This document shows positions 3,660 through 19,797 of a DNA stretch of 64,000 nt, piece after piece. Position 1 is the stretch's first letter. Every line of letters starts with the position of its first letter. The position numbers were made by a program, and so were the translations under genes. The stretch spans positions 53,745 to 117,744 of the IMG/VR virus record IMGVR_UViG_3300026549_000042. One strand, 5' to 3'. The stretch comes from a virus (lineage: Duplodnaviria > Heunggongvirae > Uroviricota > Caudoviricetes). The notes under the pieces are model-generated. The model searched no databases, was not told the DNA's origin, and saw nothing but the letters and a program-made list of their open reading frames with translations.

Positions 3660-3724
3660 AAATCATTTAAATATTTTTCAATCTATAATCTATTTTAATT
3701 TATAAAAATATAATAAGTAAATAA

Positions 3725-4378
3725 ATGAAAAAACTTTTATTTTTAGTTATGTTATCCGTATTTATGATTGGTATGAATTCATGTAACCGTTGTAATAAGG
3801 ATAAAGAAAATGATAATGCTCAAGAACAAGTTGATTCAACAGATACAGCAAAGTTAGATTTTGCTCGTCTTGTTGCAGCAGATCGTCAAGAAATGTTTGT
3901 TATCGCAGGTGATGATTACCGTTGGTATGAAACATGTATGAGACTTAACAATTATCTTGATGAAGAAAATGATGGTACTTTAGCAGAACTTGTTAATGTA
4001 TTTCAAGCAGTTGTTGCTCGCAGTGAAAGTAGTTTTGATACTAAAGTTTACAAGTTCCAACATTTTAGTGACGGTACTAATCTTAAAGATTCTATTGCTG
4101 GATTCTGGGTTGAAGATGAACCTATGAATGATGATGCAATTCAACTTACATATGAACAAGCGTATGAAAAGTTAATGGAAACAAATATTCCTAAGCCACA
4201 TTCACGTTATGTAACATTACGGAAACAAGTTGGACCTAAAGAAGCAAATCCTCAATACATTTTTGGTAATGTACGGGAGCAGGTTTATGTAGATGCAGTT
4301 ACTGGTGAAGTACTTAATTATAATCCTGCATTTGGACCTGATTTGAATCTTGGTACTCCTCTTGGTGAGTGGCCCTAA
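3725..4378 (+). CDS. lipoprotein, hypothetical
   Basis: Signal peptide MKKLLFLVMLSVFMIGMNSC with lipobox Cys; locally higher GC. Confidence 0.6.
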   Translation: MKKLLFLVMLSVFMIGMNSCNRCNKDKENDNAQEQVDSTDTAKLDFARLVAADRQEMFVIAGDDYRWYETCMRLNNYLDEENDGTLAELVNVFQAVVARSESSFDTKVYKFQHFSDGTNLKDSIAGFWVEDEPMNDDAIQLTYEQAYEKLMETNIPKPHSRYVTLRKQVGPKEANPQYIFGNVREQVYVDAVTGEVLNYNPAFGPDLNLGTPLGEWP

Positions 4379-4394
4379 ATAGTAGATGTGAGAA

Positions 4395-4656
4395 TAGGCC
4401 TCTGAGTATGTATAAGGGTAATTCTTTAAGAAATAGCTCGAGTAAAGTTAAAGAAGTAGATTGGAACTGAAAGAGTTTCCTCAGCCTTATGAAAAGAGTT
4501 GGTTGGATTAAATTCCAAAATGTGAAGAGCAGCAGATTCCGTAAGGAGCCATACGGTGGAACACAACAAAAGTCGTAAAACAGCGCAAGTGCCTAATAGC
4601 GGGTTGCCAAATTTGGTTGCAAAAGTCTGTACCTCGCAAATCTTCTCACCATAACA
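4395..4656 (+). ncRNA. candidate structured non-coding RNA (unclassified)
   Basis: GC-rich segment in an AT-rich genome, no convincing ORF, several local stems (ccgtaaggagccatacgg; palindrome ccaaatttgg), followed directly by a strong terminator. Confidence 0.2.
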
Positions 4657-4690
4657 TGCAGTTACTTTAAGTAACTGCATTTTTTTGTTT
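4657..4690 (+). terminator. rho-independent terminator
   Basis: gcagttac-ttta-gtaactgc hairpin followed by tttttttg. Confidence 0.6.
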
Positions 4691-4758
4691 AAATTACTTA
4701 AATATCTAAGTGAAAATTTCTATATTATATTTGTAAAACTTAAAAAAATAAAAATATT

Positions 4759-5007
4759 ATGTTAGTTAAAGTTTCATACGATTCCAGAAGAAAATGCAGA
4801 GAAACGTTTCCTATTAAAAGAATTGGGAAACTTATTAATAGTGCAGTTTCTCTTCTTGAATTAGTACCCGTAGAGCAAGTTATTTCTGAATGTATTTATG
4901 ATCCAAATAACAAGGAGTTGTACAATATTCTTCTTTATTTGATTAGAGAAAACTGTACTGATGAAAAGATAATTAAAGAACTTGAAAAATTTGAATATTA
5001 TAAATAA
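4759..5007 (+). CDS. hypothetical protein
   Basis: 82-aa ORF. Confidence 0.4.
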   Translation: MLVKVSYDSRRKCRETFPIKRIGKLINSAVSLLELVPVEQVISECIYDPNNKELYNILLYLIRENCTDEKIIKELEKFEYYK

Positions 5008-5016
5008 CTTATTTAA

Positions 5017-5181
5017 ATGACTAAAGAAGAAATTATAAAGAAGTTTCCATTTATGTTAGATGGACATTGGTATGGTGAAATGGGGGTTTGTACAATATGT
5101 TCTTATTTTGAAACTTGTGATAAGATGCTTCCGGGATTTATTCATACTAGAAAATGCGGTGGACCATTTATAAATAATTGA
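5017..5181 (+). CDS. small Cys-rich protein (CxxC...C...C), not in the supplied ORF track (<60 aa)
   Basis: 54-aa ORF MTKEEIIKKF...CTICSYFETCDKM...RKCGG; followed by a palindromic hairpin. Confidence 0.3.
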   Translation: MTKEEIIKKFPFMLDGHWYGEMGVCTICSYFETCDKMLPGFIHTRKCGGPFINN

Positions 5182-5200
5182 TAATATTAAATATTTAATG

Positions 5201-5232
5201 AAGGGATCACTTAAGTGATCCCTTATTTCGTT
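5201..5232 (+). terminator. palindromic hairpin / weak terminator
   Basis: aagggatcacttaagtgatccctt perfect palindrome with CTTAAG core, then a T-rich tail. Confidence 0.4.
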
Positions 5233-5418
5233 GAAAAGAGTTATTTAATGTTACTATATTTTAATTATATATATACTAAAAATTTTAATGAAAAATTTTG
5301 ATTGGCAAGAAAGTAACATGTGTAAGTTTAATGGGTGCATCTATTATGATTTTGAAAATAATAAATGCTCATTGACTATATGTAAGATGCTAAACAAAAA
5401 ATAATATTAAGTATATGT

Positions 5419-5467
5419 TATGAATTTATGAATTATTATGAATTATTATGAATTATTATGAATTATG
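5419..5467. repeat. 10-bp tandem repeat (atgaattatt x about 4.5) spanning the start codon of the downstream gene
   Basis: tgaatttatgaattattatgaattattatgaattattatgaattatg read directly from the sequence. Confidence 0.8.
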
Positions 5468-6276
5468 TAAATAGTTTATCAATATATGGGTTTATGAATA
5501 AGAATTGTCAAAAGATTGATAATTCATTGTCATTTTGGAAAACCAAGTCACATTCACAATTAGTTTCATGTATAGAACCTCTTGATGTTATTCCTGAAAA
5601 TGTTCAAAAATTATCTTATATGTATTTAGACAAAGACCCAGGAATTAAAGGTACATATATGACAGAACAAATTACTTCAATAATTGACAATACATTTTTG
5701 AAAGATAATTTGACAAGAAAGAATCATAAAGAGATTTTTGAGACATACAGGAAATATCAATCAAGAATAACAGTTCATGAAGACTTAGACTATATACAAA
5801 GGCATTATGATGATATTATTGAAATGATTGAAGAATGGAGATATGCAGACTATGGTGGAATGAAATATATGTGGCAAGAAAGAGCTGGTGTTGATAAAGC
5901 ATTTTTTAAAAAATACTTAGAAGACATATTTTTACAACATCAAATATCAGTATATATATTTACTCATAATGAACTTGACAATAAGATAATAGGATATTCG
6001 GTTATGCCAAATATTTATTCTATCAACAATCATCATGTTCCTGAAGTATCATATATGCTTCGTAAATGTTTGTTAAAGAATGATAAAGTAAATTTGCGAA
6101 ATATAACTGAATATATTGATTGGATTACTTTCTGTAATACAATGAAAAACCTAAACATAGATATTTTGGCAGTAAATTGGGGATGTTCTGATAAAGGTGT
6201 AAAATGGTATAAAGAACATAAATGGCCATTGTTATATAAAGAAAATAAATACTTTGTAAACATTAAACTATCATGA
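5458..6276 (+). CDS. hypothetical protein
   Basis: 272-aa ORF; its start lies inside the tandem repeat and only the last ATG is in the long frame. Confidence 0.5.
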   Translation: MNYVNSLSIYGFMNKNCQKIDNSLSFWKTKSHSQLVSCIEPLDVIPENVQKLSYMYLDKDPGIKGTYMTEQITSIIDNTFLKDNLTRKNHKEIFETYRKYQSRITVHEDLDYIQRHYDDIIEMIEEWRYADYGGMKYMWQERAGVDKAFFKKYLEDIFLQHQISVYIFTHNELDNKIIGYSVMPNIYSINNHHVPEVSYMLRKCLLKNDKVNLRNITEYIDWITFCNTMKNLNIDILAVNWGCSDKGVKWYKEHKWPLLYKENKYFVNIKLS

Positions 6277-7463
6277 TACAATTAGAAATTCCATATACAT
6301 ATGAAAACTCTTCAAATCCTTGGTTGATGGATAAAATGGATGATAGCGATGTACTAGAATTTAACGGTCATAAATATACTGCTGAATACTTATGGACGTT
6401 AGATATTGAAGGTCGCAAGAAAGCCTTACAGAATGTGTTTCTCTATTATAGGGATCACGGTTTTCCATATCCTAATATATTTTATAAAGACATAGAAAAG
6501 GAATTTGAGAAGCTCATTCGGTATAATGTAAATAATGTAATAAATAAAGATGGATATATATCTAATTCAAGTAATATTTGTTTAAATTTATGTAAGTATT
6601 TTTGTAAAGATTATTTCTATAAAGCATCGGATGGTAATATGTCTGTTGAAGATGTATTTTATAATGATGAACTATTTATAAAAGTATTGAAAAACAGAAT
6701 GGGATGGAATACAACTAAAGAAGGTGGTATAGAACGCCCATATTTATTTCCTATATCTGATAAACAAATATTAAATGGAATACGTAATTCAGGATTAGGG
6801 TATGGTGTTTCAAACTTTAGACCAGTAGTTGCTAAATATATGTATGATCATGCTTTAGATTTAATCTTTGATTTATATGATTTTGATATAATTGATCCAT
6901 ATATATTTGACTATTCTGGTGGATGGGGTGCTAGAATGATGGGTGCTTTGTCTATATCAAATTGCCATTATGATTGTACAGATCCATTGACACATGAATG
7001 CTTGAAAGATATTGAAAAAACATTGTTGCACCATAATCAAGAAGTAAATGTATATGATAAATGTTCGGAAGACAACTTCTTTATGAATGAACAATTTAAG
7101 GAAAAATATAATATAATTGGTTCATGTCCTCCATATTATGATCAAGAAATCTATTCAAAAGATGATACACAAAGTACATCTTCAAATGACAATTATGTGG
7201 ATTGGCTTAATAACTATTGGAAAGATACTATAAAAAATTGTCATTATATGTTAGACAAAACAGGCATATTCATATTAGTCATTAAAGAAAAACATGTAAA
7301 ATATGAATTAATGAAAGATATGAATGACGTTATAGTAAAAGAAGGATTTGAATTGGTGGATGATAAACAATATAAATCAAATACTAATCATCTAAGCGGT
7401 AAAGCAAAAACAGGTAGAACATCTAAAAATAATGAACATATATTGTTTTATAAGAAGCTTTAG
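6273..7463 (+). CDS. hypothetical protein with methyltransferase-like motifs (possible gamma-class amino-methyltransferase fold)
   Basis: Motif I-like DPYIFDYSGGWGARMMGA and motif IV-like SCPPYY about 75 aa later; start overlaps the upstream stop (ATGA). Confidence 0.45.
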   Translation: MIQLEIPYTYENSSNPWLMDKMDDSDVLEFNGHKYTAEYLWTLDIEGRKKALQNVFLYYRDHGFPYPNIFYKDIEKEFEKLIRYNVNNVINKDGYISNSSNICLNLCKYFCKDYFYKASDGNMSVEDVFYNDELFIKVLKNRMGWNTTKEGGIERPYLFPISDKQILNGIRNSGLGYGVSNFRPVVAKYMYDHALDLIFDLYDFDIIDPYIFDYSGGWGARMMGALSISNCHYDCTDPLTHECLKDIEKTLLHHNQEVNVYDKCSEDNFFMNEQFKEKYNIIGSCPPYYDQEIYSKDDTQSTSSNDNYVDWLNNYWKDTIKNCHYMLDKTGIFILVIKEKHVKYELMKDMNDVIVKEGFELVDDKQYKSNTNHLSGKAKTGRTSKNNEHILFYKKL

Positions 7464-8764
7464 CTAATTATTTCATAAATCCATTCTTTTAATTCATTTA
7501 TATTCCAAAATTCTAAGTAGTTTAAATTATTTTGTTTAGCTATATTTCTCTTATTTACATCACGTATAGTCCAACAATTTATAGCATTATTGTAGAATTT
7601 GGTATTTTTACTTTTCCAATGTTCTAATATTAAATTATCTTCTTCTGTTCCTTCATAAGGTTTTCCGCCATGTGTCCAATGATAGTTACATTCAATATAT
7701 GTATCTAAACTTGGAATATAAAAGTCACAAGCAAAAGGATATACATTAGATTTATATTGATAGAGTGCATCAGGATATTTTTCTTTTAATAACTTATATG
7801 ATTCTTCTTCAGGTTTTGATGTATTAAATGTATGATTTTTGCGTTTTGTATCTAATACCTTTTGTATACATTCTTCTGAAAAACGTTTTTGTTTAGATAT
7901 TTCAGATTTTAAATAATTATCTACTCCATATTTTTTTATTAGTGTTTGTTTTCTTTTTTCATTAACTTCTGGTGTTTGAGCTGCTAATATACCCTTTTTA
8001 TGTATTTCTGGTATTTGATATGGATGAATATATCCTGTTCTTTCTTTTAATGTATTTTGTATTTTATTTTTTACTACATCTGAACATATAGGGGCTGGAC
8101 CACCATATTTTTTAATATTTGTTTGCTTTGTTTTTTCTTTAATATCTTCTCGTTGAGATGAATGTTCAACCCCATATTTATTTATATTATTTTGCTTAAC
8201 TAATGTTTTAAAATAATTTGTTTTAAACATTAAATCACCAAACTTTTCTATAATAGTATTGTTAGCCTTTTCTCTATTTGTAAAATTTTCATCTCCGTAT
8301 CTTTCTAATTTTGTTTGTTTTGTTTTTTCTTTAATATTATCATTTAATAATGGAGAAGTTGTTCCATATTTTTCTAAACATGTTTTCTTAACCTTTTCTT
8401 TAACTATACTTGAATTAACAGGATTTTCAACACCATATTTTTCTAAACATGTTTTCTTAACCTTTTCTTTAACATTCTTATCTAATGTTGAACATCTACA
8501 AGAACAATGAGATCTATATTTATTTTGTCCTAAATAAGTAACTTTATTACCACATACAGGACATACTGGACGAACTTCAATATTATAATATATTCTATAA
8601 ATTGTTTCAGTAAATGATTCAGAATCTTCAAATCTATTTATTAAATATTTTTCAATTTCTTCAGGATATTTATGTTTGTTTAATTTTGTAATATTATTTA
8701 TTTCAATTTTTTTATTTTGTTTTATAAATAATTTAATTATATCATTATCTGTTATATCTTTCAT
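7460..8764 (-). CDS. free-standing homing-endonuclease-like protein: Zn-ribbon, tandem K-x-LEKYG DNA-binding repeats, C-terminal nuclease-like domain
   Basis: CPVCGN...CSCRCS zinc ribbon; five or more repeats of KEKxKKTxLEKYG(V/T).NP; C-terminal CDFYIP...IECNYHWTHGG block; sits immediately downstream of nrdD. Confidence 0.55.
   Translation of the reverse strand: MKDITDNDIIKLFIKQNKKIEINNITKLNKHKYPEEIEKYLINRFEDSESFTETIYRIYYNIEVRPVCPVCGNKVTYLGQNKYRSHCSCRCSTLDKNVKEKVKKTCLEKYGVENPVNSSIVKEKVKKTCLEKYGTTSPLLNDNIKEKTKQTKLERYGDENFTNREKANNTIIEKFGDLMFKTNYFKTLVKQNNINKYGVEHSSQREDIKEKTKQTNIKKYGGPAPICSDVVKNKIQNTLKERTGYIHPYQIPEIHKKGILAAQTPEVNEKRKQTLIKKYGVDNYLKSEISKQKRFSEECIQKVLDTKRKNHTFNTSKPEEESYKLLKEKYPDALYQYKSNVYPFACDFYIPSLDTYIECNYHWTHGGKPYEGTEEDNLILEHWKSKNTKFYNNAINCWTIRDVNKRNIAKQNNLNYLEFWNINELKEWIYEIIS
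8375..8495. repeat. intragenic direct DNA repeats (about 45-60 bp units) encoding the LEKYG protein repeats
   Basis: ccatatttttctaaacatgttttcttaaccttttctttaac occurs twice almost identically. Confidence 0.7.
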
Positions 8765-8863: not shown

Positions 8864-10591
8864 TTAATTCTTAAAATGTTTTACTCGGTCATGGAATTCC
8901 TTCTTTTTACCAGCATTAAAGTGTTCTACTTGTGTACTTAAATATCCTGTGACTCTTCCAAGTTGGTCTATTTTTTCGCAACCACACTTTGGACATTTGT
9001 CTAAACTAAGATCCCATATACGTTCACCGCAATTATGACATTGTGAAATCTTTACATTTATTGCAAAATATGGTATATCTTTTTCCATAGCATAATCTAC
9101 TAAACTCTCAATTCCATCAATATTATTATATGGAACCTCACCAACTTCGGTATAAGTGATACACCCGGCGTTTGAATACGATGTGAGTTGGCTTTCTATA
9201 TCAATCTTTTCAAAAGGATCACATTCATGGTATACAGGTACATGCATTGAATTGGTAAAATATTTCTTATAATCCTTTTCTTTGTCTTCATTATAGAACC
9301 AAGTAACATTTTCTATATCAAATTCTGGAAATGCCTTTTGAAATTTTTTAAACGCTGTATGACAAAGATTTTCTGCTGGTGTATAATAAACTCCAAAATT
9401 AAGTTTATATTCCTTCTTAAATTCTGATGTCCTATCAAGCCAAAGTTGCTCAATTTGCTTTGCATATTTCATACCTTCTTCACAAGTATGGTCAAATCCA
9501 AACATAATAATTAATGCTTCAGAAAGTCCAAGTTGTCCAATTACAATAGTACCATGTTTAAGAGCTGAAATAATACCTTCATCTTTATGATATCCACTCA
9601 TAGTATGGTTTTCATACATAAATTTTGCTGATTTTACGGATTGTGAACAAATGTGATTGAATCGTTCGAGAAGCATATCCTTTGCCTCATGAAGTTTCTT
9701 GTCAAGTAGTTTTATGAATTCATTCCAAACTTGTTCAACTAATTCCGTAGATTCTCTGTTTAAATATTCTATCACATTGTCTTTTGCAACCTTTTTGACT
9801 GTCATTGCTGCTAAAGTAGGAAGTATGATAGTTACTGGGCAAATATTACCACGACCATCCTTTTGAATAGCTGAAAATACATCATCAATCTTATCAAATT
9901 CACCATCAATAGCATGTTGAACGTTATTCTTAAAATTATCTAATGCATTAATGTCTAATAGATTAACTGTACGACATCCCATAGTATTAAAAAATTCTAT
10001 TTGGCGTTCTGTTTTATCAACTTCTATATATGATTCTTTATTAATAAATAAACCAAGTTTTTCCATAAAAATATTAGGATTTTTACCAACTTGATTATAT
10101 AATTTATTATAAGTTTCAGGATCTAATGAATCAATAAATTCTTGTTTTTGCTTTCTATCTTGTTTAAGTGCATTAGTATTGTTACTCCAATCTGCATTTG
10201 CATAATTAGGATAAATACGCTTTGTGGTTGATTCTAATGCAAGACGTTTCAAGTCATAGTTAGGTGTTCCTGGTTTATCATTTACGCCTTTTTTATATTG
10301 AAATATACCACATGGGAAAATACTTGTTACACCATTTTCACCAAGACCCTCCATAGATACTTCTAAAAGAGCTTTTGTTACCATACGACCTGCTGGTAAA
10401 GTACAAGTACCGTAATTAATACTTGTGAAGGGTAGCTGATTCCCGCTCCTTGATTGTAATGTATTTAAATTGTGATACATCCCTTCAACGGCTTGATGAA
10501 TTTCCTTTTCTGTCATGTCCATTGCATACTTCCAAGCGTCTTTATATTGTTTATACTTAGAATCTGTAATTTCTATATCTGTTACTTTCAT
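8864..10591 (-). CDS. nrdD: anaerobic ribonucleoside-triphosphate reductase NrdD, C-terminal fragment (catalytic barrel, Zn ribbon and glycyl-radical motif)
   Basis: Matches T4/E. coli NrdD blocks: LNTLQSRSGNQLPFTSINYGTCT, VTSIFP, PNYDLKRLALESTTKRIYP, YYTPAENLCH, CHNCGER...CPKCGC, RVTGYLS; its own start MKVTDIEI. Confidence 0.9.
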   Translation of the reverse strand: MKVTDIEITDSKYKQYKDAWKYAMDMTEKEIHQAVEGMYHNLNTLQSRSGNQLPFTSINYGTCTLPAGRMVTKALLEVSMEGLGENGVTSIFPCGIFQYKKGVNDKPGTPNYDLKRLALESTTKRIYPNYANADWSNNTNALKQDRKQKQEFIDSLDPETYNKLYNQVGKNPNIFMEKLGLFINKESYIEVDKTERQIEFFNTMGCRTVNLLDINALDNFKNNVQHAIDGEFDKIDDVFSAIQKDGRGNICPVTIILPTLAAMTVKKVAKDNVIEYLNRESTELVEQVWNEFIKLLDKKLHEAKDMLLERFNHICSQSVKSAKFMYENHTMSGYHKDEGIISALKHGTIVIGQLGLSEALIIMFGFDHTCEEGMKYAKQIEQLWLDRTSEFKKEYKLNFGVYYTPAENLCHTAFKKFQKAFPEFDIENVTWFYNEDKEKDYKKYFTNSMHVPVYHECDPFEKIDIESQLTSYSNAGCITYTEVGEVPYNNIDGIESLVDYAMEKDIPYFAINVKISQCHNCGERIWDLSLDKCPKCGCEKIDQLGRVTGYLSTQVEHFNAGKKKEFHDRVKHFKN

Positions 10592-10609: not shown

Positions 10610-11611
10610 TTATATATTTTTTATAGATTTTAAAAATGTAAATGGTGAAACAAATCTTTCATTTAGTTCCTTAATAACTAATTTAGTATGTTGAATTAAC
10701 TTTTTTTCAAACTTGTTCCATCTATTGTTTATTTTCTTTATAATTTCATTGTTAGATATATTAGGATTAATGTTTTTGATTAAGTCTTCATAATCAATAT
10801 TATTCTTTTTAATTGTTTCTATTCTATTTTTTGTAATTTTTCTATATGAATTACAAAAATCATTTACATATTGTTTATCAGTATTTTCATTTAGATATTT
10901 AATATTGTTTTTAACTATAACAAATGTTTTATATAATGGATTCTTAAAAATTAAATTAGCTTGTTTATCTGATTGGTATATATCATAACTATCATTATTC
11001 AATATATTTTTAAATTGAGCAATATACGCATTTTTTTCAATATCAGATAAGCAATATATAATGTTTTTTACTAAAATATCCATATCTGTATCATCCTTTT
11101 CAATAGTAATTAATGATTGATAACCTGAATTCTTAATTGCTCTATATATTGTATTTTTATTGCCTTTATTATATGCGGAAATATTATCATATATATGTTC
11201 AAATTCATGTGCTAATAAATCTGTATAATTATCCTTTTCTTGATAAACAGTTTTTATATATAGATCAATTGTTATTATATTGAATTTTTTATCATAAGGA
11301 TTATAGTTTATATTAATTCCTGAATTATTTTCTTTGACAATATGATAATTTGCTTCATCTTTATTGTAATTCCCTATAAAAACATTTATAATTAACATAT
11401 TACAAAATATATTATAAGGACATTCATGCGAAAGTATTTCTATTATATTATTACCATTATTTAACTCTTTAATAATTTTATTTGATAAAAAATCACAAAT
11501 TTCATCTATTTTGGGGGGCGATCCCTTTCTTTCAAAAATCTCATATATAAATTCTTGTGTAAATTTATTATAGATATTTTGTTCATATATATATTCTGAA
11601 AACTTTTTCAT
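10610..11611 (-). CDS. hypothetical protein (contains HEFEH, an HExxH-type motif) in the insertion between nrdD fragments
   Basis: 333-aa N/I/K-rich ORF; TDLLAHEFEHIYDN. Confidence 0.45.
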   Translation of the reverse strand: MKKFSEYIYEQNIYNKFTQEFIYEIFERKGSPPKIDEICDFLSNKIIKELNNGNNIIEILSHECPYNIFCNMLIINVFIGNYNKDEANYHIVKENNSGININYNPYDKKFNIITIDLYIKTVYQEKDNYTDLLAHEFEHIYDNISAYNKGNKNTIYRAIKNSGYQSLITIEKDDTDMDILVKNIIYCLSDIEKNAYIAQFKNILNNDSYDIYQSDKQANLIFKNPLYKTFVIVKNNIKYLNENTDKQYVNDFCNSYRKITKNRIETIKKNNIDYEDLIKNINPNISNNEIIKKINNRWNKFEKKLIQHTKLVIKELNERFVSPFTFLKSIKNI

Positions 11612-11617
11612 ATTTAA

Positions 11618-12463
11618 CTAATAAATTATTGTTGATATTGGATATTCAAAATTATTATAGAAAATAATTCTTGACATCATAAATACTAATGTATGATATT
11701 TTGCCATCCAAATATTTTTTATATTATCAAAATCAATTTCTGTAGATGATAATAGTTGTTTTCTTTCATTTAATAATTTTCCATAATTAGTATTTTTATC
11801 TATACATTTAACATTACAAATTATTTTTATAAACTGATCAAATATTTTACATGTTTTAAAATTATCAATATTTATTAAATTTAAGTAATAATCAACATCT
11901 AAATTAGATTCATATATATTTATTTGGTTATCATATTTTTTATATGCACAATTATATAATGAATGAAATTGAAATTGTTCATTTTGATATTTTTCAAATT
12001 TTATATTATATTTATGTGTGACTGCTTCATATGAATTAATTAGTAAGTATTTTATTATATAATCTAAATCAATAAACTGGTAATCATTAGTCAAATTAAT
12101 ATAAAAATATAGATTATCAATTAGATGATCATCGGTTATTTTGTTATAAGTATAGTTTATTGAAAATTTTTCTGAATCAAAATTAACTATTAAGTACAAA
12201 TGATTAAAATATTGTTCATATATTTTACTATTAAAACAATCTTCTTTAGTTATTAAAATATTTTTTGAATATATATGTTTTATACATAGTTTACATAATT
12301 TTTCGCAATATTTATAGTTAAAATAATTGTAATAATCATAATAATAACTATAATAATTATCATTAATAGTATAAAAACATAATTTATATAAGTTAATAGA
12401 ATTATCTAAATTATTTATTAAATATTCATAATAACTTATTGATTCATCTGTCTTCTTCAACAT
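11618..12463 (-). CDS. hypothetical protein (N/Y-rich) in the insertion between nrdD fragments
   Basis: 281-aa ORF of extreme N/Y/I composition. Confidence 0.4.
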   Translation of the reverse strand: MLKKTDESISYYEYLINNLDNSINLYKLCFYTINDNYYSYYYDYYNYFNYKYCEKLCKLCIKHIYSKNILITKEDCFNSKIYEQYFNHLYLIVNFDSEKFSINYTYNKITDDHLIDNLYFYINLTNDYQFIDLDYIIKYLLINSYEAVTHKYNIKFEKYQNEQFQFHSLYNCAYKKYDNQINIYESNLDVDYYLNLINIDNFKTCKIFDQFIKIICNVKCIDKNTNYGKLLNERKQLLSSTEIDFDNIKNIWMAKYHTLVFMMSRIIFYNNFEYPISTIIY

Positions 12464-12662
12464 ATACTTTATTATCTTCTATTTTAACAATTTTGAATAC
12501 TGTTCCACCTGCATACCAACCATTACCGATCTTTGGATAGCGTTTCCATTTCTTTGCTCCTTCAGTAAAAGTTTTATCTAAAGATCCATTAACATATACT
12601 TCCCAGTCTTTACCGTTTTCTGGCTTGACTGCTTCATTTATATATTGTATTAATTTTTTCAT
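12444..12662 (-). CDS. small hypothetical protein immediately downstream of nrdD exon 2
   Basis: 72-aa ORF starting 2 nt after the exon-2 stop. Confidence 0.4.
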   Translation of the reverse strand: MKKLIQYINEAVKPENGKDWEVYVNGSLDKTFTEGAKKWKRYPKIGNGWYAGGTVFKIVKIEDNKVYVEEDR

Positions 12663-12663
12663 A

Positions 12664-12984
12664 TTAATCTTGTAATATTGTATTAACTATTGCATCTATT
12701 TCTTGATCAGTTTTATGTTCAACGTATTTTAGTCCATCCTTAAAATGCTTCATAAATGATTTACGAACATAAGGTACCATTGTCCAATCAATATGAGTAG
12801 CACCTACACCACCAAATTGTTGTAATGATTGTAATTGGAAAATAACAGCAACTAATTGCATGGCGGTATTTACTGAATTAGCTCCTCTAACATCTGTTTG
12901 TCTTGTCTTAAATCCTTCTGCAAGTAGCTTATCAAATGGTATGCTTAAACAGTTATGATCCCCCGTCATATAATGATCTAAATC
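12664..12984 (-). CDS. nrdD: NrdD exon 2 (N-terminal fragment, second part)
   Basis: DLDHYMTGDHNCLSIPFD...GANSVNTAMQLVAVIFQLQSLQQFGGVGATHIDWTMVPYVRKSF aligns to T4 NrdD HDIDYSPALPFTNC...GVATAIMAQITAQVASHQYGG; exon begins at the Asp codon after the intron-terminal G. Confidence 0.8.
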   Translation of the reverse strand, partial: DLDHYMTGDHNCLSIPFDKLLAEGFKTRQTDVRGANSVNTAMQLVAVIFQLQSLQQFGGVGATHIDWTMVPYVRKSFMKHFKDGLKYVEHKTDQEIDAIVNTILQD

Positions 12985-14105
12985 CATTTCCTCTTTATAT
13001 TTCTATATAGAACTGACTATATCATCTTCCATAAAGGAAGTTGCGCACTTCGAATAGTGTTAATCTCTATTCTACATCCTTACACTCATCAGGATTAGTC
13101 GATACACCTTTAAATTTATCCTTTTCAATAATTATTTTTAAGTTTTCAAATTTTTTATGCTTACTAAATTTAGGTTTCCACGTATTATTAATTATTTGAT
13201 AAGAAATAGTTCTTGATAATCCTAAATTATTTCTAATCCAAGAAAACATATCTTTTCTATATCTTGTTTCATATAGAATAGTATCATCTAATTTACAAAT
13301 AAAATTATCAGGACATTGAGCATTTCTATTATTTAAAATTGCTTGAAGAGATAATTTTCTTCCTTTTAATTTTAATCCTATTTGTTTATGCATTTCTTTG
13401 GCTTTTTCTGTTTTGTTAAAATTTTGTATTGCATTTCTAAGATTTTCAAGATGTTCTTGTGAAAAATGTCTTGAAACTCCTTTATTTGCTTTACTTATTC
13501 TTTCAAGTTGTTCTTTAGTATATACATGATGCCACATTGGATTTTTTTCACCTGTTCTTGTTTTTGCAAATTCACTTAATTTTTTTCTCATATTTTCACC
13601 ATAGTTTCCATGGTTTCCACCTCTACCACCTTCATGAAAATTTGCTTTACATTCGCCTCTTTCCCAATACTCATGTATTAATTTTCTTTCTAAATCCCAA
13701 GATTCTTGCTCATAAAGATTTTCATACAATTTTTTAACATCAACATTATTTCCCTCTTTTGCAATTATTGACTTAAAATAATTATTTCTATGAAATTCAA
13801 CATCTTTCCATCTATCATAACATCCTTTCCCTATATAAAATATCTCATTAGTATCTATATAGTACCAAGCATAAATATAATATTTGTTTTCTGTTGTATT
13901 CATATTATTTAATAAATTTATTTGGCTCGGTATTTCCAGCTATCCAAATTAATGGACCTTAGGTTCTCTTAGTCAGTGTATTCGTGAGTAGATCATTCTC
14001 CTTATTTAACTGATACCGATAGCAGAAGTTTAACTTCCACACCCCTTTAACATAGGTTCACGCAATTATTCAAAACATATTACTATATTAGGCCACAATT
14101 TTCTT
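12985..14105 (-). mobile_element. group I intron in nrdD carrying a GIY-YIG homing endonuclease gene
   Basis: Interrupts NrdD between ..MIYIH and DLDHY..; upstream exon ends in U and the intron ends in G; GC-richer flanks (12988-13066, 13904-14105) suggest a structured RNA; T4 nrdD has an intron in the same gene. Confidence 0.7.
13067..13903 (-). CDS. GIY-YIG homing endonuclease (intron-encoded) with NUMOD-like repeats
   Basis: YYIYAWYYIDTNEIFYIGKG...R...E; repeats GEKNPMWHHVYTKEQLERISKANKG and FSQEHLENLRNA. Confidence 0.85.
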   Translation of the reverse strand: MNTTENKYYIYAWYYIDTNEIFYIGKGCYDRWKDVEFHRNNYFKSIIAKEGNNVDVKKLYENLYEQESWDLERKLIHEYWERGECKANFHEGGRGGNHGNYGENMRKKLSEFAKTRTGEKNPMWHHVYTKEQLERISKANKGVSRHFSQEHLENLRNAIQNFNKTEKAKEMHKQIGLKLKGRKLSLQAILNNRNAQCPDNFICKLDDTILYETRYRKDMFSWIRNNLGLSRTISYQIINNTWKPKFSKHKKFENLKIIIEKDKFKGVSTNPDECKDVE

Positions 14106-14600
14106 ATGGATATATATCATATTTTCTTCGTGATTCTTTCGTGCCATCTTTGACATTGTCTTTAATGCAAGATTTTTAGCAACAGCACCTGCAGTTTCTC
14201 CTAAACGACCTCCAAAAGATGCTTCATCAAGATTTGCATTTTGATTTTGTACATTTTTTGCAGAAAGCTTATCATTAATTTGTTTCATTAAGTCAGATTT
14301 TTGTTCACGAATTTCTTCACGTTTACGTCTATAATTAATGAATGATTCAACAACTTCATATTTGTTTCTCTTAATAAGTTCCTTTTGAATTACATCTTGA
14401 ATTTCTTCAATAGGTGTTCCTTCACCATTGTTTTTTATAATAACCTTTTCAACTGCATCTTTAACTTGTTCTAAAAACTTCTCAGGAACTTCTTGATTGA
14501 CTGATGTAAAGGCTTTTGTAATAGCATCAGCAACTTTTATAAATGAATATTCCTGAGGAGTACCATCTCTTTTGATTACTTTCATATAAATAGAATTCAT
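14106..14600 (-). CDS. nrdD: NrdD exon 1 (ATP-cone plus start of catalytic domain)
   Basis: ATP-cone MKVIKRDGTPQEYSFIKVADAITKAF; ends ..SKMARKNHEENMIYIH, aligning to T4 ..IMKAHESGIIHVH; the ORF runs 5 codons into the intron before a stop. Confidence 0.8.
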
Positions 14601-14792: not shown

Positions 14793-15794
14793 TTATTTTT
14801 TCCAGTAACTATAAATATTTTTTTCTACCTCGTAATTGTCAAATATAAATGACTTCCTATCTTGTATGTTATTTGCCCAGTTCCACATATTTTTCAGGCC
14901 TTCTTCAAATGATATGTCTTCTTTATAGTCTAATATATCTATAGATTTTTTACCATCAGGATATGCAAAAAATACTTCATGACGTTTTTCAAGATATACT
15001 TTATCATGATATCCTGCAATATTCATTAATATATCGGCAGCTTCATTTATCGTATATTCTTTAAGACCTCCAAGATTAATAATTTGCTTACTTGCTTTAT
15101 CATATACCGCAGCATTCCATAAACAAGGCAAACAGTTATCAATATATGAAAATGCTCTTACTTGATTACCATCTCCATATATTGAAATTGGCAAGTTATG
15201 ATTTATTTGATTAATCCATATACCAAGTACATTACGATACTTATCCCATATATTTTGATTTTCTCCGTATACATTATGGGGACGAATAATACACCAGTCT
15301 AATCCATGCTGTATACCTGCAATTCTAATGTCTTGCTCACAACTATATTTTGCTACTCCATAAGGATCTATAGGTGCAGGGGTATCATTCTCTGTAAACA
15401 TAGAATTTGACATATTTCCATGACCGTATACTGACATTGATGATGTAAATATTAGTCGTCTTACATTAAAGTTTATACATGCATTTACTACATTAGCTGT
15501 TGCTACCATATTATTCATATAATTAAACCTACGAATAAACGGTGATAATCCTTCAGCAGCATACGCAGCAAGATGATATACATATTCTATATCATATAAT
15601 TCAAAAATATCTTCAATATCATCTGTTGCTAAATCTCTATCATATAATGTACATCCTTTAGGCAAATTGTCTAAATAACCGCCAAGTAAATTGTCTATAC
15701 CTATAACATTATATTCTGGATGTGTGTTTATTATATATTCTGCTAATCTACTACCAATAAAACCAGCAGCTCCTGTTATTAAAATCGATTTCAT
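14793..15794 (-). CDS. NAD-dependent sugar-nucleotide epimerase/dehydratase (GalE-like SDR)
   Basis: Rossmann motif ITGAAGFIGSRLAEY, catalytic YGVAKY; adjacent to glf. Confidence 0.8.
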   Translation of the reverse strand: MKSILITGAAGFIGSRLAEYIINTHPEYNVIGIDNLLGGYLDNLPKGCTLYDRDLATDDIEDIFELYDIEYVYHLAAYAAEGLSPFIRRFNYMNNMVATANVVNACINFNVRRLIFTSSMSVYGHGNMSNSMFTENDTPAPIDPYGVAKYSCEQDIRIAGIQHGLDWCIIRPHNVYGENQNIWDKYRNVLGIWINQINHNLPISIYGDGNQVRAFSYIDNCLPCLWNAAVYDKASKQIINLGGLKEYTINEAADILMNIAGYHDKVYLEKRHEVFFAYPDGKKSIDILDYKEDISFEEGLKNMWNWANNIQDRKSFIFDNYEVEKNIYSYWKK

Positions 15795-16963
15795 TAATTA
15801 AGTGTCTCTATATATTTATCATTAAATACTATATTCTTATAATCTTCCATTGCCTCCTTAATACAATCATCCATGTCTAAATATTTATACTTTCCGATTC
15901 TTCCACCAGGTATGATATTTGGATATGTCTTTTGTAATAATTCGATATATTTAGTATATAAAGTATTGTTTTCTTCGTCATTAATAGAATAATATCGTTC
16001 CTTTTCTGGTGTCCAATCATCAGGAATCTCAAGCGTCTTAATAGTATAATTTCCTATAAAAGATTCAACAGATTCAGGAGTAAACCAAATATGATCAATT
16101 ATTCGTGTTCCTTGTTGGTTGTCTATTAAATTTGTAACAGCAATACCTTCAGATGATTTATAATCAAACTTATATAAATTATGTTCGAATCTTAAACTAC
16201 GATATTGTAAAACTCCTAATTCATAGTCAAGTAATTCATCTATAGCTCCACAATATATTACTTTACTATATTTACTTAATTCTTCTTTATGATCAAGTAT
16301 ATTATAATTTAGTTTTACATCAATGCCAGACAATATGTTAGATATCATTTTTGTATATCCGCCTATAGGAATACCTTGAAATATGTCATCAAAATAGTCA
16401 TTATTATAATTCATTCGTATAGGTATTCTATTTATGATAGATGCCGGCAATTCTTTAGGATCTTTATTCCATTGTTTTTGAGTATATTTCTTTATGATCT
16501 TTTCATATAATGTCTTACCAACCAATGATAATGCCTGTTCTTCAAGATTAGTAGAATTTTCAATATTTAACTTTTCACTTTCAATAGTTTCTAATATCTT
16601 TTTACTATCTATTGTTCCAAACACATCATAAAATGTATTCTTATTAAATGGTAAATGATATATCTTATTGGCAGAATCTATAGCAATTACAGAATGTCTA
16701 TAGTTATTGAATTCTGCATAATTACTTACAAAATCTATTACAGTTTTGTCAGATGTATGAAATATATGTGCACCGAATTCATGAACAGTCATACATTTTC
16801 CATCTTCAGCATAGAATGGATTATCATGGCACATTCCACCAACATATTCATGCTTATCAACTACTAAACATTTATGATTATTGTTTGTCAATAACCTTGC
16901 TATTGTTGCTCCATATAATCCTGCACCAACAATCAAATATTCATAATTATTATCTTCATTCAT
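15794..16963 (-). CDS. glf: UDP-galactopyranose mutase
   Basis: FAD motif LIVGAGLYGA, FGAHIFHT, EEQALSLVGKTLYEKIIKKYTQKQW; collinear with E. coli Glf. Confidence 0.9.
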   Translation of the reverse strand: MNEDNNYEYLIVGAGLYGATIARLLTNNNHKCLVVDKHEYVGGMCHDNPFYAEDGKCMTVHEFGAHIFHTSDKTVIDFVSNYAEFNNYRHSVIAIDSANKIYHLPFNKNTFYDVFGTIDSKKILETIESEKLNIENSTNLEEQALSLVGKTLYEKIIKKYTQKQWNKDPKELPASIINRIPIRMNYNNDYFDDIFQGIPIGGYTKMISNILSGIDVKLNYNILDHKEELSKYSKVIYCGAIDELLDYELGVLQYRSLRFEHNLYKFDYKSSEGIAVTNLIDNQQGTRIIDHIWFTPESVESFIGNYTIKTLEIPDDWTPEKERYYSINDEENNTLYTKYIELLQKTYPNIIPGGRIGKYKYLDMDDCIKEAMEDYKNIVFNDKYIETLN

Positions 16964-18021
16964 TAGAGTTGTCGTTTCTTTAGGATTTCAATAAACTGAT
17001 CTTCAGTAAAAGTACAACCAGCTGCACCTTTATGACCTCCACCATTATATTTTTCTTTTAAAAATTCACCACAATGGAAATAGTCATCATTATTGATATT
17101 GTACATAGACAATACCCAATTTCCATTAGATTGATGTTTAAATACAAGACCATTTCTAATGTCTTTATTTTGTAAACATTTGAACATTAATGAATTTGAT
17201 TGCCCTTCATGAAATATTGCACATGCCTTTCTATAAAATGGCCTTCCTCTGTCGGCATCATCAACCACTATATTCCAAGAACAATCTCCATTATATTTAA
17301 TAATATTTTCTATAGTTATATCTTCATAATCATTAAGTTCTTGCCCGCGTTTATACATGTTACCAATTAGTATATTCTCAAATTGAATATCTAATCCATT
17401 ATGATATATTCCAATAATATATTGAACCGTTTCTAATACTTTATCAATATTTAAGTTAAATTCAACAGTAGTACCTTTATTTATATGTCTTACCCATTCA
17501 TGAGTATATCCTTCATGTTCATATGACCAACTGTCCCATGCAGAAAGTATTCTAAAAAACTCAGGAAATTCTCTGTGTAATTCAGGAATAGGTTTATTTG
17601 CATCTATTTGATTATACTTTTCATTAAATGGATCATAAAAATATTCATAAGCACATAATATAGCCGATTTTGAAGTATTTCGAACACCTTCACAATCAAA
17701 TCCATTCTTTACTTTTAATGATTCATTTATAATTGGTGCATGATGATCAAACCATATCATATTATGAGCAAATTCATTATAAAGATCATGCATATAATCT
17801 GCAGTAAAAGATATATCAGTCAATATAATAGTATTATATCTTTCATGAAGTTTCTTTGGCGTATTGTTTTTCTGAAAATAATTCATTAAATTATAATCGG
17901 CACCAATAAGATTAATTTCATCTCTTGCTATATCATGTGTTATAAGATAATTAAGTATTATTGCTGCAGAAAATACACCGTCATTATCTTCTTTATGATA
18001 TATTAATAAATATTTTTTCAT
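16963..18021 (-). CDS. DHH-family phosphoesterase (NrnA/RecJ-like)
   Basis: Motif I YHKEDNDGVFSAAI, motif III FDHHAPI. Confidence 0.65.
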   Translation of the reverse strand: MKKYLLIYHKEDNDGVFSAAIILNYLITHDIARDEINLIGADYNLMNYFQKNNTPKKLHERYNTIILTDISFTADYMHDLYNEFAHNMIWFDHHAPIINESLKVKNGFDCEGVRNTSKSAILCAYEYFYDPFNEKYNQIDANKPIPELHREFPEFFRILSAWDSWSYEHEGYTHEWVRHINKGTTVEFNLNIDKVLETVQYIIGIYHNGLDIQFENILIGNMYKRGQELNDYEDITIENIIKYNGDCSWNIVVDDADRGRPFYRKACAIFHEGQSNSLMFKCLQNKDIRNGLVFKHQSNGNWVLSMYNINNDDYFHCGEFLKEKYNGGGHKGAAGCTFTEDQFIEILKKRQL

Positions 18022-18117
18022 ACTATTTCTATTTTAATATTATAAGTTTAATTTAAAATTGATTTATTGATAGAAATATTTTAATATTTTTATATATAAT
18101 ATATAGAGGGTTTTTTC

Positions 18118-19797
18118 ATGAATTTAGTTGTATCATTAAATAATATTGATGAATTAAAAGATATTAATATTGATGAAAATATTAAAGAAAAATTTGATAA
18201 TATTTTCTATGTTTTCAATGATAGTCAAATAGAAAAACTTAAGTTATTATATCCTAATGATATTATAATTGTAAATAAGAATAATAAATTATTTAATAAT
18301 AAAGTTAATATAAGTATTCTTATTCCTGTATATAATTGTGAAAAGTATATTAAAACATGTTTAGATAGTTGTCTAAAACAAGATTTTGAAGGAACTTATG
18401 AAATTATTATTGTTGATGACGGGAGTACTGATAATACAGTAAATATTATTAAATCATATAATGACAATAAAATTAAATTATATAAATTAGAGCATAATGG
18501 TATAAGTAATGCTTTAAATTTTGGATTGTCTAAATGTGAAGGTGAATATATTTGTAGAATGGATGGAGATGATGAAATGTATGTTAATAGATTGACAATA
18601 CAATATAAATATATGTTAAGACATCCAGATACTGATATATTAAGTAATGGATTGCTGTGTTTTGATGAAAGCTTAACATATATAAAAGATAATATCTCTA
18701 TATGTAATTTTGATAAATCCAATCTATTATTATTAGATATTGTCAATAATTGTGATATACACCATCCTTGTACATTTATAAAAAACAATATTAATGGATT
18801 TTATTATGACAATACTTATGATGGATTTGAAGATTATGAGTTATGGTTTAGATTGATAAAATATGGATATAAGATATCTTCTTGGCATATACCTGTAATT
18901 AAATATAGATATAGAGAAAATTCAAATAGTCATAATATAAATATTGTAAATGATGTAAATAAATTAAAAACAAATATATTAGAAGAATCTAAAAAAATAG
19001 TTGGTATTTATTATATTGCTACAGGTATATATAAAAACAATTTTAAAAAATTTTTAGAATCAATACATAATTTCTTACCAATATATAATAAAACAATTAT
19101 ATTATTAACTGATGGCTTGGAAGAATATAAAAACTATAGTAAAGACAATATAAATATTGAACATCATTATATTGAAGATCATCCATGGCCAATAGTTGCA
19201 TTATTTCGTTTTCATTATATATTAAAATATAAAACAAATTACGATTATATATTTTTTATAAATTCAAATGCAGTAATTAAAGAAAATAAATCAATAAATT
19301 GGTTTGATCAAAACAAAATAAATGTTACCAAGCATTTTACATATCGCTCTGGCGTTTTAACTACATATGAAATGTTATTACCAAGTGATGATAACCCAAA
19401 TTCAACTTCATATATAGGAAATATTGAATATACATATTGTCAAAGTGGTTTTTTTGGTGGTCCAAATAATTTAATTTATGAAATGTGTGAAGATATTGTA
19501 AATATAATAGATATTGACTTAAAAAATAATATTATTGCAAAATGGCATGATGAAACATATTTTAATAAATGGTTATATAGTAAAAAATATGATAATAGAT
19601 TAATTAATATTACTGATGTATTTTTTACTAAAAATTTTTCACAAGAGAAAAAATCTAATTTTATTTATCTTGAATATAAAAATGAAGATGATAAAGATTT
19701 AAATAAAAAGAAAAAGTTAGAAAATAAATTAAATTATGGACAATATAAAAATGAACATAATTATGATTTAGACAAAAATACATTAAATAAAATTTAA
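18118..19797 (+). CDS. bifunctional glycosyltransferase: N-terminal GT2 domain fused to a C-terminal GT6 (ABO-like alpha-1,3-Gal/GalNAc-transferase) domain
   Basis: GT2: ISILIPVYNCEKYI...IIIVDDGSTDNT...MDGDDE; GT6: HPWPIVALFRFHYI, FINSNA (NxN in place of DxD), QSGFFGGP, WHDETYFNKW (compare human GTA/GTB HDESHLNKY). Confidence 0.75.
   Translation: MNLVVSLNNIDELKDINIDENIKEKFDNIFYVFNDSQIEKLKLLYPNDIIIVNKNNKLFNNKVNISILIPVYNCEKYIKTCLDSCLKQDFEGTYEIIIVDDGSTDNTVNIIKSYNDNKIKLYKLEHNGISNALNFGLSKCEGEYICRMDGDDEMYVNRLTIQYKYMLRHPDTDILSNGLLCFDESLTYIKDNISICNFDKSNLLLLDIVNNCDIHHPCTFIKNNINGFYYDNTYDGFEDYELWFRLIKYGYKISSWHIPVIKYRYRENSNSHNINIVNDVNKLKTNILEESKKIVGIYYIATGIYKNNFKKFLESIHNFLPIYNKTIILLTDGLEEYKNYSKDNINIEHHYIEDHPWPIVALFRFHYILKYKTNYDYIFFINSNAVIKENKSINWFDQNKINVTKHFTYRSGVLTTYEMLLPSDDNPNSTSYIGNIEYTYCQSGFFGGPNNLIYEMCEDIVNIIDIDLKNNIIAKWHDETYFNKWLYSKKYDNRLINITDVFFTKNFSQEKKSNFIYLEYKNEDDKDLNKKKKLENKLNYGQYKNEHNYDLDKNTLNKI

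Follow-up and report, generated by a model that had tools for sequence, protein, structure and literature searches.

A probable mobile group I intron with a predicted GIY-YIG homing endonuclease gene in the nrdD gene of a huge phage

We analyzed a stretch of 64,000 nucleotides (hereafter the window; positions 53,745 to 117,744 of IMG/VR virus record IMGVR_UViG_3300026549_000042) in which nrdD, the gene for the large subunit of the class III ribonucleotide reductase (RNR), is interrupted. The window carries genes for a T4-like portal and a large terminase and is therefore assigned to a phage; relatives of its nrdD locus lie on contigs of 200-460 kilobases (kb). The segment 14105-12985 on the minus strand is very probably a mobile intron of group I (phage subgroup IA type), inserted in nrdD of this huge phage of 26% G+C. 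A first-pass annotation, made from the sequence alone, had already proposed a group I intron with a GIY-YIG-type endonuclease in nrdD, and this headline is borne out by an empty site in close relatives, by P1, P10 and the terminal guanosine (omega-G), by covariation in helices P3 to P9, and by the GIY-YIG fold of the encoded protein. Elements of this kind are familiar from T4 onwards; new here are the site and a lineage of intron RNA outside the coverage of Rfam. In biological terms this is an ordinary selfish element that leaves current understanding unchallenged. The parts of the interrupted segment are as follows.

14106-14600, minus strand: nrdD exon 1, 165 codons, which encode the ATP-cone and the first part of the NrdD core; its 3' end is ..NMIYIH (..AUCCAU).
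12985-14105, minus strand: very probable group I intron, 1,121 nucleotides, subgroup IA type with P7.1 and P7.2; first base 14105, omega-G 12985.
13067-13903, minus strand: predicted homing endonuclease gene, 837 nucleotides including the stop, 278 amino acids; start in the P6 loop.
12664-12984, minus strand: nrdD exon 2, 106 codons plus the stop TAA (12666-12664); it opens with DLDHYMTGDHNC.

Unspliced, the open reading frame (ORF) of exon 1 (14600-14088, minus strand) reads ..NHEENMIYIH (..ARKNHEENMIYIH) and then KKIVA and a stop within the intron, while the exon 2 frame that opens at 12984 on the same strand reads DLDHYMTGDHNCLSIPFD. The gap between the exons is 14105-12985, exactly 1,121 nucleotides; the last base of the upstream exon is U (..AUCCAU) and the last base of the intron is G (..GGAAAUG). 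These boundaries, the length and the two terminal bases had all been given in the first-pass annotation and proved exact to the base. When the exons are joined in frame, a product of 271 amino acids is obtained, or of 266 if counted from the second ATG. The predicted ligated junction is ..AUCCAU-GAUUUAGAU in the RNA and ..ATCCAT followed by GATTTAGAT in the cDNA (also ..ATATATCCAT followed by GATTTAGATCAT). The joined product matches the Pfam ATP-cone family (E=2e-18) and positions 2-139 of the NRDD profile (E=1e-27). Against the NrdD of Thomasclavelia phage TR-TP1 it gives a single unbroken tblastn piece over the junction, at 56.5% identity, and it aligns with ..HESGIIHVHDIDY.. of T4 NrdD, as had been noted in the first pass. 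The insertion point is between codons H165 and D166, in the conserved nrdD motif ..IH/DLD.. (here and below, a slash within a motif marks the insertion point). The N-terminal portion of nrdD is best annotated as one spliced coding sequence (CDS), and not as two unrelated small ORFs and a "hypothetical protein".

Decisive evidence against chance boundaries comes from near-identical contigs that lack the intron. When the predicted spliced protein was used as a query, P0080 was found; 266 amino acids long and 99% identical to the query, it is encoded on 22 contigs, which reach 392 kb in length. This intron-less allele, represented by contig L212, reads unbroken through the point at which exon 1 ends; its junction region is ..ATATATCAGCATGATATGGACCAT.. 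(also given as ..GAAAATATGATATATCAGCATGATATGGACCATTATATGACAGGT..). Contigs L212-L215 are syntenic with the window (a Glf gene, an epimerase gene, the N-terminal part of nrdD, ORFs of 72, 284 and 333 amino acids, and a C-terminal part of nrdD of 575 amino acids). They are about 96.5% identical to it in DNA here, yet lack exactly these 1,121 nucleotides. With 14105-12985 removed from the window, the junction aligned without a gap against the empty allele, and a shift of either boundary by a single base loses the CAT/GAT of that allele. Both the exact boundaries and the empty-site polymorphism are thus direct observations.

The two alleles differ by 44 substitutions in 1.3 kb (background 3.4%), and 8 of the 44 lie between -5 and +24 of the junction. 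There the intron-bearing allele has ATC CAT/GAT TTA GAT CAT TAT ATG ACG GGG and the intron-less allele has CAG CAT GAT ATG GAC CAT TAT ATG ACA GGT, which places I and L in the former instead of Q and M. The clustered substitutions supply the intron-bearing allele with exon bases complementary to the guide sequence of the intron, and such clustering in the flanks is the pattern that would be expected of exon co-conversion in homing. The hallmarks of a mobile intron, its presence and absence at an identical site and clustered changes in the flanks, are both found here. The locus therefore offers natural pairs of intron-plus and intron-minus alleles for work on homing and co-conversion.

From a comparison with compact, ORF-less members of the intron family described further below, the helices of the intron RNA were mapped as listed here, all on the minus strand.

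14093-14109: P1 with the internal guide sequence; CCAU of the exon (14109-14106) pairs with GUGG of the intron (14096-14093) and forms U•G at the splice site.
14101-14097 with 12984-12980: P10, AAAUU (intron nucleotides 5-9, directly 5' of GUGG) paired with GAUUU of exon 2.
13904-14092: 5' half of the putative ribozyme, P2 to the 5' strand of P6.
14089-14074: P2, with a GUAA loop.
14065-14060 with 13046-13041: P3, UUGCGU paired with GCGCAA.
14056-14044 and 14040-14022: extra hairpins, provisionally named P3.1 and P3.2, respectively.
14019-14013 with 13933-13927: P4, UCGGUAU paired with AUACCGA.
14012-14009 with 13977-13974: P5.
13964-13943: two hairpins.
13920-13912 with 13119-13111: P6, UAAAUUUAU paired with AUAAAUUUA, with the ORF in its loop.
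12985-13119: 3' half of the putative ribozyme, 3' strand of P6 to omega-G.
13109-13096: R element GGUGUAUCGACUAA (also given as GUAUCGACUAA), which includes the 5' strand of P7, GACUA (13100-13096).
13094-13077: P7.1.
13072-13052: P7.2.
13040-13026: P8.
13023-13015: S element GAUAUAGUC, which includes the 3' strand of P7, UAGUC (13019-13015).
13011-12992: P9, with a GAAA loop.

RNAfold stretches P1 to CCAUAA/UUGUGG (here the slash separates the two strands), in which GUGG is intron nucleotides 10-13. The R and S elements are invariant throughout the intron family described below, and we take them to match the published group I consensus for these elements. The presence of P7.1 and P7.2 between the 5' strand of P7 and the 3' strand of P3 is a mark of subgroup IA. 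The first-pass annotation had named the lack of a P1-P9 structure as grounds for giving up its proposal; the helices from P1 to P9, P10 and omega-G could all be mapped. It had also described the flanks of the ORF as richer in G+C, and they are, but modestly so: the non-ORF flanks have 32.7% and 31.7%, compared with 25.4% for the ORF and 26.3% for the window. Two other assignments were considered for this region. The sequence ACUGACUAAG (13977-13968) was taken as the R element, with the ORF in P8, and was dropped after comparison with ORF-less relatives, in which the true R element corresponds to a sequence inside the 3' end of the ORF, the ORF falls in P6, and ACUGA is the 3' strand of P5. A pairing of GCUAUC with GAUAGC (14024-14019 with 13945-13940) is complementary yet invariant and would cross P4; it was not adopted.

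The conserved, covarying helices were also observed directly. An ordinary MAFFT alignment of 19 family members, fitted to no structure, was scored for 60 pairs in 12 helices; in the ORF-bearing members the P6 loop had been swapped before alignment for a GAAA linker of 4 nucleotides, which lies outside all tested pairs. In this alignment 90.9% of the cells were paired, against 70.5% in column shuffles and 33-44% when the 3' partner was slid by 1-3 columns. Compensatory (two-sided) changes occurred in 41 of the 60 pairs, and none of these measures was reached by any of the shuffles (0/500). P3 is undercounted in this test because three rows of the alignment (WIN, L009 and L150 in alignment A5) are one column off register in its 5' strand. 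An anchor-based count finds 6-7 of the 7 P3 pairs in nearly all members, and at least 10 mutually complementary sequence variants of P3 occur across the family. P3.2, P7.1, P7.2, P8 and P9 are kept as hairpins over 23-29 distinct sequences. Since P7 is invariant, complementarity alone speaks for it.

Introns at the same nrdD site in contigs L009, L216 and L218 retain CCAU/..GUGG, P10 with GAUUU, and omega-G. Among these same-site introns P2 varies in a compensatory manner (AAUAUA with UAUGUU, AAUCUA with UAGAUU, GAUAUA with UAUAUC, and AAUAUG with CAUAUU), and P3 likewise is either UUGCGU with GCGCAA or UUGCAU with GUGCAA. In a blastn search with the 202-nucleotide 5' part of the intron, matches came from many phages, in unannotated gaps of genes that are split. 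Among these genes are dnaE in Bacillus phage G and in an SPbeta-like staphylococcal phage, DNA polymerase genes in Twort-like staphylococcal phages and in one Mammaliicoccus phage, nrdD in Fusobacterium phage Fnu1, and genes without a name in phages of Clostridium and Enterocloster. The matched gaps adjoin ORFs for HNH, GIY-YIG or unnamed "homing endonuclease" proteins, or hold no substantial ORF. The phage G, Twort-like, SPbeta-like, Fnu1 and Clostridium/Enterocloster introns share with the window the core sequences GGUAUCAG.., CUGACUAAGA..CUAAGGU.., AUACCGUGCCAAG, GUGUAACGACUAU and GAUAUAGUC, and the helices. Their host genes and sites differ, the ORF encodes an HNH or a GIY-YIG protein or is absent, and the P5 extension of the window is far shorter than those of the phage G, Twort-like, Fnu1 and similar introns. 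In the nrdD intron of Fnu1 (L004, 1290-2480) the GIY-YIG ORF is in the loop of P3.2, not P6, and the site is ../QTPF...

It should be noted that two short sequences of the intron family (alignments A4 and A5; at about 13960 and 13938 on the minus strand of the window) vary together: CUA-A-GG always occurs with AGC-U-G, and CUA-C-GG always with AGC-A-GG. This co-variation is perfect but non-Watson-Crick, and may reflect a tertiary contact inside the P4-P5 domain.

The intron holds an ORF of 837 nucleotides, as had been stated in the first pass, at 13903-13067 on the minus strand. Single-sequence searches of PDB, Pfam, NCBIfam and PHROGs with its 278-residue product gave nothing, or weak matches to PHROGs of unknown function. 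Since these were uninformative, a family was built first, which comprised 77 relatives. In an alignment of 34 of them, Y11, R39, E72, N88 and a GG.GG motif are invariant and Y9, the IG of YIG, and R31 are nearly so. The motif is YIY(9-11)-X11-YIG(23-25), in which the first Gly is replaced by Tyr; the earlier description of it as a textbook GIY-YIG motif was too generous. Among the 34 relatives, Pfam identifies NUMOD3 in 22 (best E=2.5e-19), LEM-3_GIY-YIG in 11 and, weakly, GIY-YIG in 5 (best E=4.5e-4). Positions 115-151 of the family profile match the DNA-binding domain of I-TevI (1I3J) with E=0.0024; chains with GIY-YIG domains are matched more weakly. A profile comparison with T4 I-TevII by hhalign gave a remote similarity (E=5e-4). 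An AlphaFold2 model of the protein has a mean predicted local distance difference test score of 86. When this model was searched against PDB with Foldseek, ranks 1-12 were all GIY-YIG domains (PD-T4-3, UvrC), with probabilities of 0.75-1.0 and a target-normalized TM-score of about 0.6 for UvrC; the nuclease fold was thus observed in a predicted model. The predicted layout is a divergent GIY-YIG domain (residues 1 to about 90), then a linker that resembles a degenerate NUMOD3, and a DNA-binding region at the C terminus. Taken together, these results support the assignment of the ORF as a predicted, divergent GIY-YIG homing endonuclease gene, whose activity and specificity we infer from the sequence. 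The relatives with 41-57% identity are all flanked by an ATP-cone ORF on one side and an NRDD ORF on the other, so that this endonuclease lineage appears faithful to its site.

The last 53 nucleotides of the ORF (13119-13067), which hold its final 18 or so codons and the stop (..DKFKGVSTNPDECKDVE and stop), overlap the predicted catalytic core. The overlap takes in the 3' strand of P6, J6/7, the R element with the 5' strand of P7, P7.1, and the 5' strand of P7.2, with the stop codon UAG in the P7.2 stem. The C-terminal peptide that this stretch encodes, ..K(G/S)VSTNPDECKDVE, is strikingly conserved in the endonuclease family, and the core is thus partly dual-coding. The first-pass annotation had placed the ribozyme entirely in the flanks of the ORF; this goes too far, and folding of the flanks alone would miss P7, since its 5' strand is inside the ORF and outside the 3' flank of 82 nucleotides.

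Several observations weigh against the interpretation of this segment as a mobile group I intron. Splicing catalysis is deduced from the sequence. The two hairpins between the 5' strand of P3 and P4 are foreign to the textbook group I scheme, and P7 has only 5 Watson-Crick pairs (GACUAA here, GACUAU in most members). The final three bases of the intron are AUG, with GAGG upstream, so that translation of exon 2 from unspliced RNA would in principle be possible. The 278-residue protein itself has no Pfam match to GIY-YIG (PF01541) or NUMOD3, even at E<=1, and the E-values of the Foldseek matches are weak (0.05-0.8), because only about 90 of the 278 residues align. Lastly, the Rfam model for group I introns (RF00028, Intron_gpI) matched neither the whole window at the gathering threshold nor the intron region at E<=10. 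The use of this model on the flanks of the ORF had been suggested in the first pass as a check, and we ascribe its failure to a blind spot of the model.

The same model also misses the ORF-containing intron of phage G, the related loci L003-L008 (two of these six without a substantial ORF) and the compact, ORF-less L189; the T4 nrdD intron, run as a positive control, scores 105 bits. Because members without an ORF are missed and the T4 intron is found, we read the lack of a match as a gap in model coverage and not as evidence against the fold. Intron_gpI is thus blind to a large family of group I introns that is widespread in phages, with a 16-base core motif in at least 120 viral contigs, and counts of introns in phage genomes that are based on this model will be underestimates.

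The stop codon of exon 2 at 12664 shows that splicing alone would restore an N-terminal part of NrdD and not the whole enzyme, a point overlooked in the first-pass annotation. The remainder of the gene and its surroundings are arranged as follows.

10610-12662, minus strand: three inserted ORFs of 72 (12662-12444), 281 (12463-11618) and 333 (11611-10610, with an HEFEH motif) amino acids.
8864-10591, minus strand: nrdD C-terminal fragment, 575 amino acids, with the remaining NrdD core, a Cys4 zinc site and the glycyl-radical motif RVTGY.
7460-8764, minus strand: free-standing, homing endonuclease-like ORF with DUF7487 and a zinc ribbon, 434 amino acids, PHROG 3339 "homing endonuclease", directly downstream of the nrdD C-terminal fragment.
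26531-27025, plus strand: nrdG, for the NrdD activating enzyme, 12 kb from nrdD; found by tblastn with the NrdG of L009 (47.7%, E=1e-46).

The 72-residue ORF starts one base after the stop of exon 2, and no informative match was found for the ORFs of 72, 281 and 333 amino acids in profile and database searches. The 575-residue ORF matches Pfam NRDD (E=6e-101) and Gly_radical, and aligns with exon 2 of T4 nrdD and with exons 2-4 of L009. The same split of nrdD is present in the intron-less contigs L212-L215, and the closest database matches of the spliced product are mostly stand-alone proteins of 265-269 amino acids. In L218 (a 403-kb contig; 3462-5885) the break point is the same and the gap is filled by a DUF7487 endonuclease-like ORF, whereas the unsplit relatives P0111 and L216 (3466-5235) read unbroken through it. 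This pattern suggests that a free-standing endonuclease gene split nrdD long ago and that the insert has since turned over. Since the split is conserved and the C-terminal part is a separate ORF, NrdD is most likely assembled from two polypeptides. The tail of the N-terminal fragment and the head of the C-terminal fragment were also considered as a duplicated segment (local protein score 44). This was rejected because P0111 and L216 carry both segments in tandem and the similarity in DNA is not above that of shuffles (156/500). The 2-kb gap of this second split (12663-10592) and the rest of the window were searched for a further intron of the same family or of the T4 type, and neither a combination of the motifs nor an Rfam match was found; we expect this gap to stay in the RNA.

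In the mechanism that we propose, the guide AAAUU-GUGG would pair first with CCAU at the end of exon 1, with U•G at the cleavage site, and later with GAUUU of exon 2 in P10. An external guanosine held in P7 would attack the 5' splice site; the terminal G (12985) would then occupy the guanosine site and the exons would be ligated. Splicing would yield the N-terminal NrdD polypeptide of 271 (or 266) residues, and the C-terminal part of 575 residues would be translated from its separate ORF 2 kb downstream. The endonuclease presumably cleaves nrdD alleles without the intron, close to the insertion site; repair with an intron-bearing copy as template would then carry the intron over, along with a short tract of flanking exon. 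Enzymes of the GIY-YIG type usually cleave a few bases from the insertion site, with 3' overhangs of 2 nucleotides. A wider proposal, which we regard as possible but rather unlikely, is that the class III RNR of this clade is an obligate two-polypeptide enzyme, with an N-terminal module of about 266 residues (the ATP-cone and the first 100 or so residues of the core) and a catalytic C-terminal part of 575 residues. In intron-bearing strains the N-terminal module would depend on splicing, and synthesis of the endonuclease and of this module would exclude each other on any one transcript. The ORF is read through the 3' strand of P6, P7, P7.1 and half of P7.2, so that a translating ribosome would unfold the core. 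If this were true, the locus would have a built-in switch between spread of the intron and production of deoxynucleoside triphosphates.

Three other explanations of the interruption were weighed. The one that survives best, though we consider it improbable, is that the ribozyme is dead or unnecessary and that the exon 1 ORF (170 amino acids, ending in KKIVA) and exon 2 (107 amino acids, from the junction AUG) are translated apart, which would make NrdD an assembly of three polypeptides. The frame of exon 1 does stop 6 codons into the intron, the AUG and GAGG stand in frame exactly at the 3' junction, nrdD here already tolerates one split into separate ORFs, and between some nrdD fragments of other huge phages no splicing reads were found (PMC12880540). 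However, the spacing between GAGG and AUG is just 2 nucleotides, and at the junction the same-site introns of L009, L216 and L218 lack an AUG (..GCG/GAU or ..ACG/GAU), yet they keep P1, P10 and omega-G. The core helices are moreover all intact and covarying, and the break falls within the conserved IH/DLD motif, an unlikely spot for a tolerated break in the protein.

In Aeromonas phage Aeh1, nrdA is split by mobE, a free-standing endonuclease gene. An insertion of that kind, without an intron RNA, would resemble the second split of nrdD, which looks just so (a stop, inserted ORFs and a new start codon), and would accord with the lack of an intron call by Pfam or Rfam. We nevertheless consider it very improbable here, since about 337 nucleotides of sequence outside the ORF or overlapping it are conserved with ORF-less introns of other genes and form covarying helices, and since P1, P10 and omega-G match the exact boundaries. 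Identity with the T4 nrdD (sunY) intron and its I-TevII gene, by vertical descent or by transfer to the same site, would fit the shared host gene, class and endonuclease superfamily and the weak profile similarity to I-TevII given above, but is hardly credible, for the alignment already refutes it: the T4 site, after ..YAQSKTEKDV, corresponds to residue 261 or so of the N-terminal fragment of the window, about 97 codons downstream of the site described here.

The preferred interpretation, a mobile group I intron of its own lineage, can be compared with known systems. The T4 intron, which is self-splicing, is likewise in the gene for the large subunit of a class III RNR, belongs to subgroup IA and encodes an endonuclease of the GIY-YIG family; it too is an optional mobile element (T4 annotation; PMC1865063). 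The T4 ORF lies 3' of the whole core, whereas that of the window sits in P6, splits the core there and overlaps P7. The T4 intron RNA is recognized by the Rfam model, in contrast to every member of the window family that was searched, and the two endonucleases are only remotely similar. The caution in the first-pass annotation that the intron need not be that of T4 was thus well placed, as site, RNA lineage and enzyme all differ.

A closer parallel in architecture is the group IA intron in nrdF of Bacillus thuringiensis, whose I-BthII ORF starts in the P6a loop and spans P7 and the R element (Nord and Sjöberg, PMC2248736); ORFs that overlap an intron core are a recognized arrangement (PMC3984707). 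The I-BthII intron shares with that of the window an RNR host gene, subgroup IA, P7.1 and P7.2, an ORF that runs from P6a to P7 and R, and a GIY-YIG domain too divergent for standard searches. It differs in its gene (nrdF, class Ib), its bacterial host and its motif, GIY-X8-YIG rather than YIY-X11-YIG, and its splicing and cleavage have been demonstrated experimentally, whereas the element of the window is known from sequence.

A 2026 study of Jug (jumbo gut) phages describes genomes of 360-402 kb with 27-30% G+C, in 95 of 104 of which group I introns and endonuclease genes break up nrdD; some of the gaps had splicing reads and others had none (PMC12880540). The window resembles these phages as a huge, AT-rich phage with a fragmented nrdD, and relatives of its locus are on contigs of 392-403 kb. 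The window is at most a candidate member of the Jug group, and that study describes neither this intron nor its site nor the overlap of ORF and core. In huge gut phages nrdD is heavily colonized, and the present locus is a compact example: the nrdD genes of its relatives have the intron with its site-faithful GIY-YIG gene, the conserved split (with a DUF7487 ORF in one contig) and further ORF-less interruptions.

Some further observations concern nrdD in related phages. The same intron and endonuclease gene are found at the same site in L009 (4302-8606) and in L219 and L220 (1844-5852), and nrdD in these contigs has two more interruptions without an ORF, of about 280-340 nucleotides, one of them after ..NLNTLQ, near the site of the Fnu1 intron. 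The NrdD of phage TR-TP1, the closest from a cultured phage, is encoded by two CDSs of 421 and 303 amino acids (L001, 6001-9124), set apart by an HNH endonuclease gene and about 440 unannotated nucleotides; this gap is probably another unannotated intron.

The ORFs around the second split also vary among phages. The 434-residue DUF7487 ORF is present in L213 but is replaced by an ORF of 319 amino acids in the otherwise near-identical L212 and L214. The 333-residue ORF is a near-orphan (2 database clusters), with a homologue of 29% identity between nrdD and nrdG in L009 (8610-9644). Directly upstream of nrdD in the window is a cluster of genes for a UDP-galactopyranose mutase, a NAD-epimerase and a glycosyltransferase, an unusual cargo for a phage; other unusual cargo in the window includes genes for an SPFH/Band-7 protein and for a 536-residue protein with EF-hand calcium-binding motifs. 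The coordinates of this cargo, taken together, are 14793-19797, 31005-33005 and 48360-49970.

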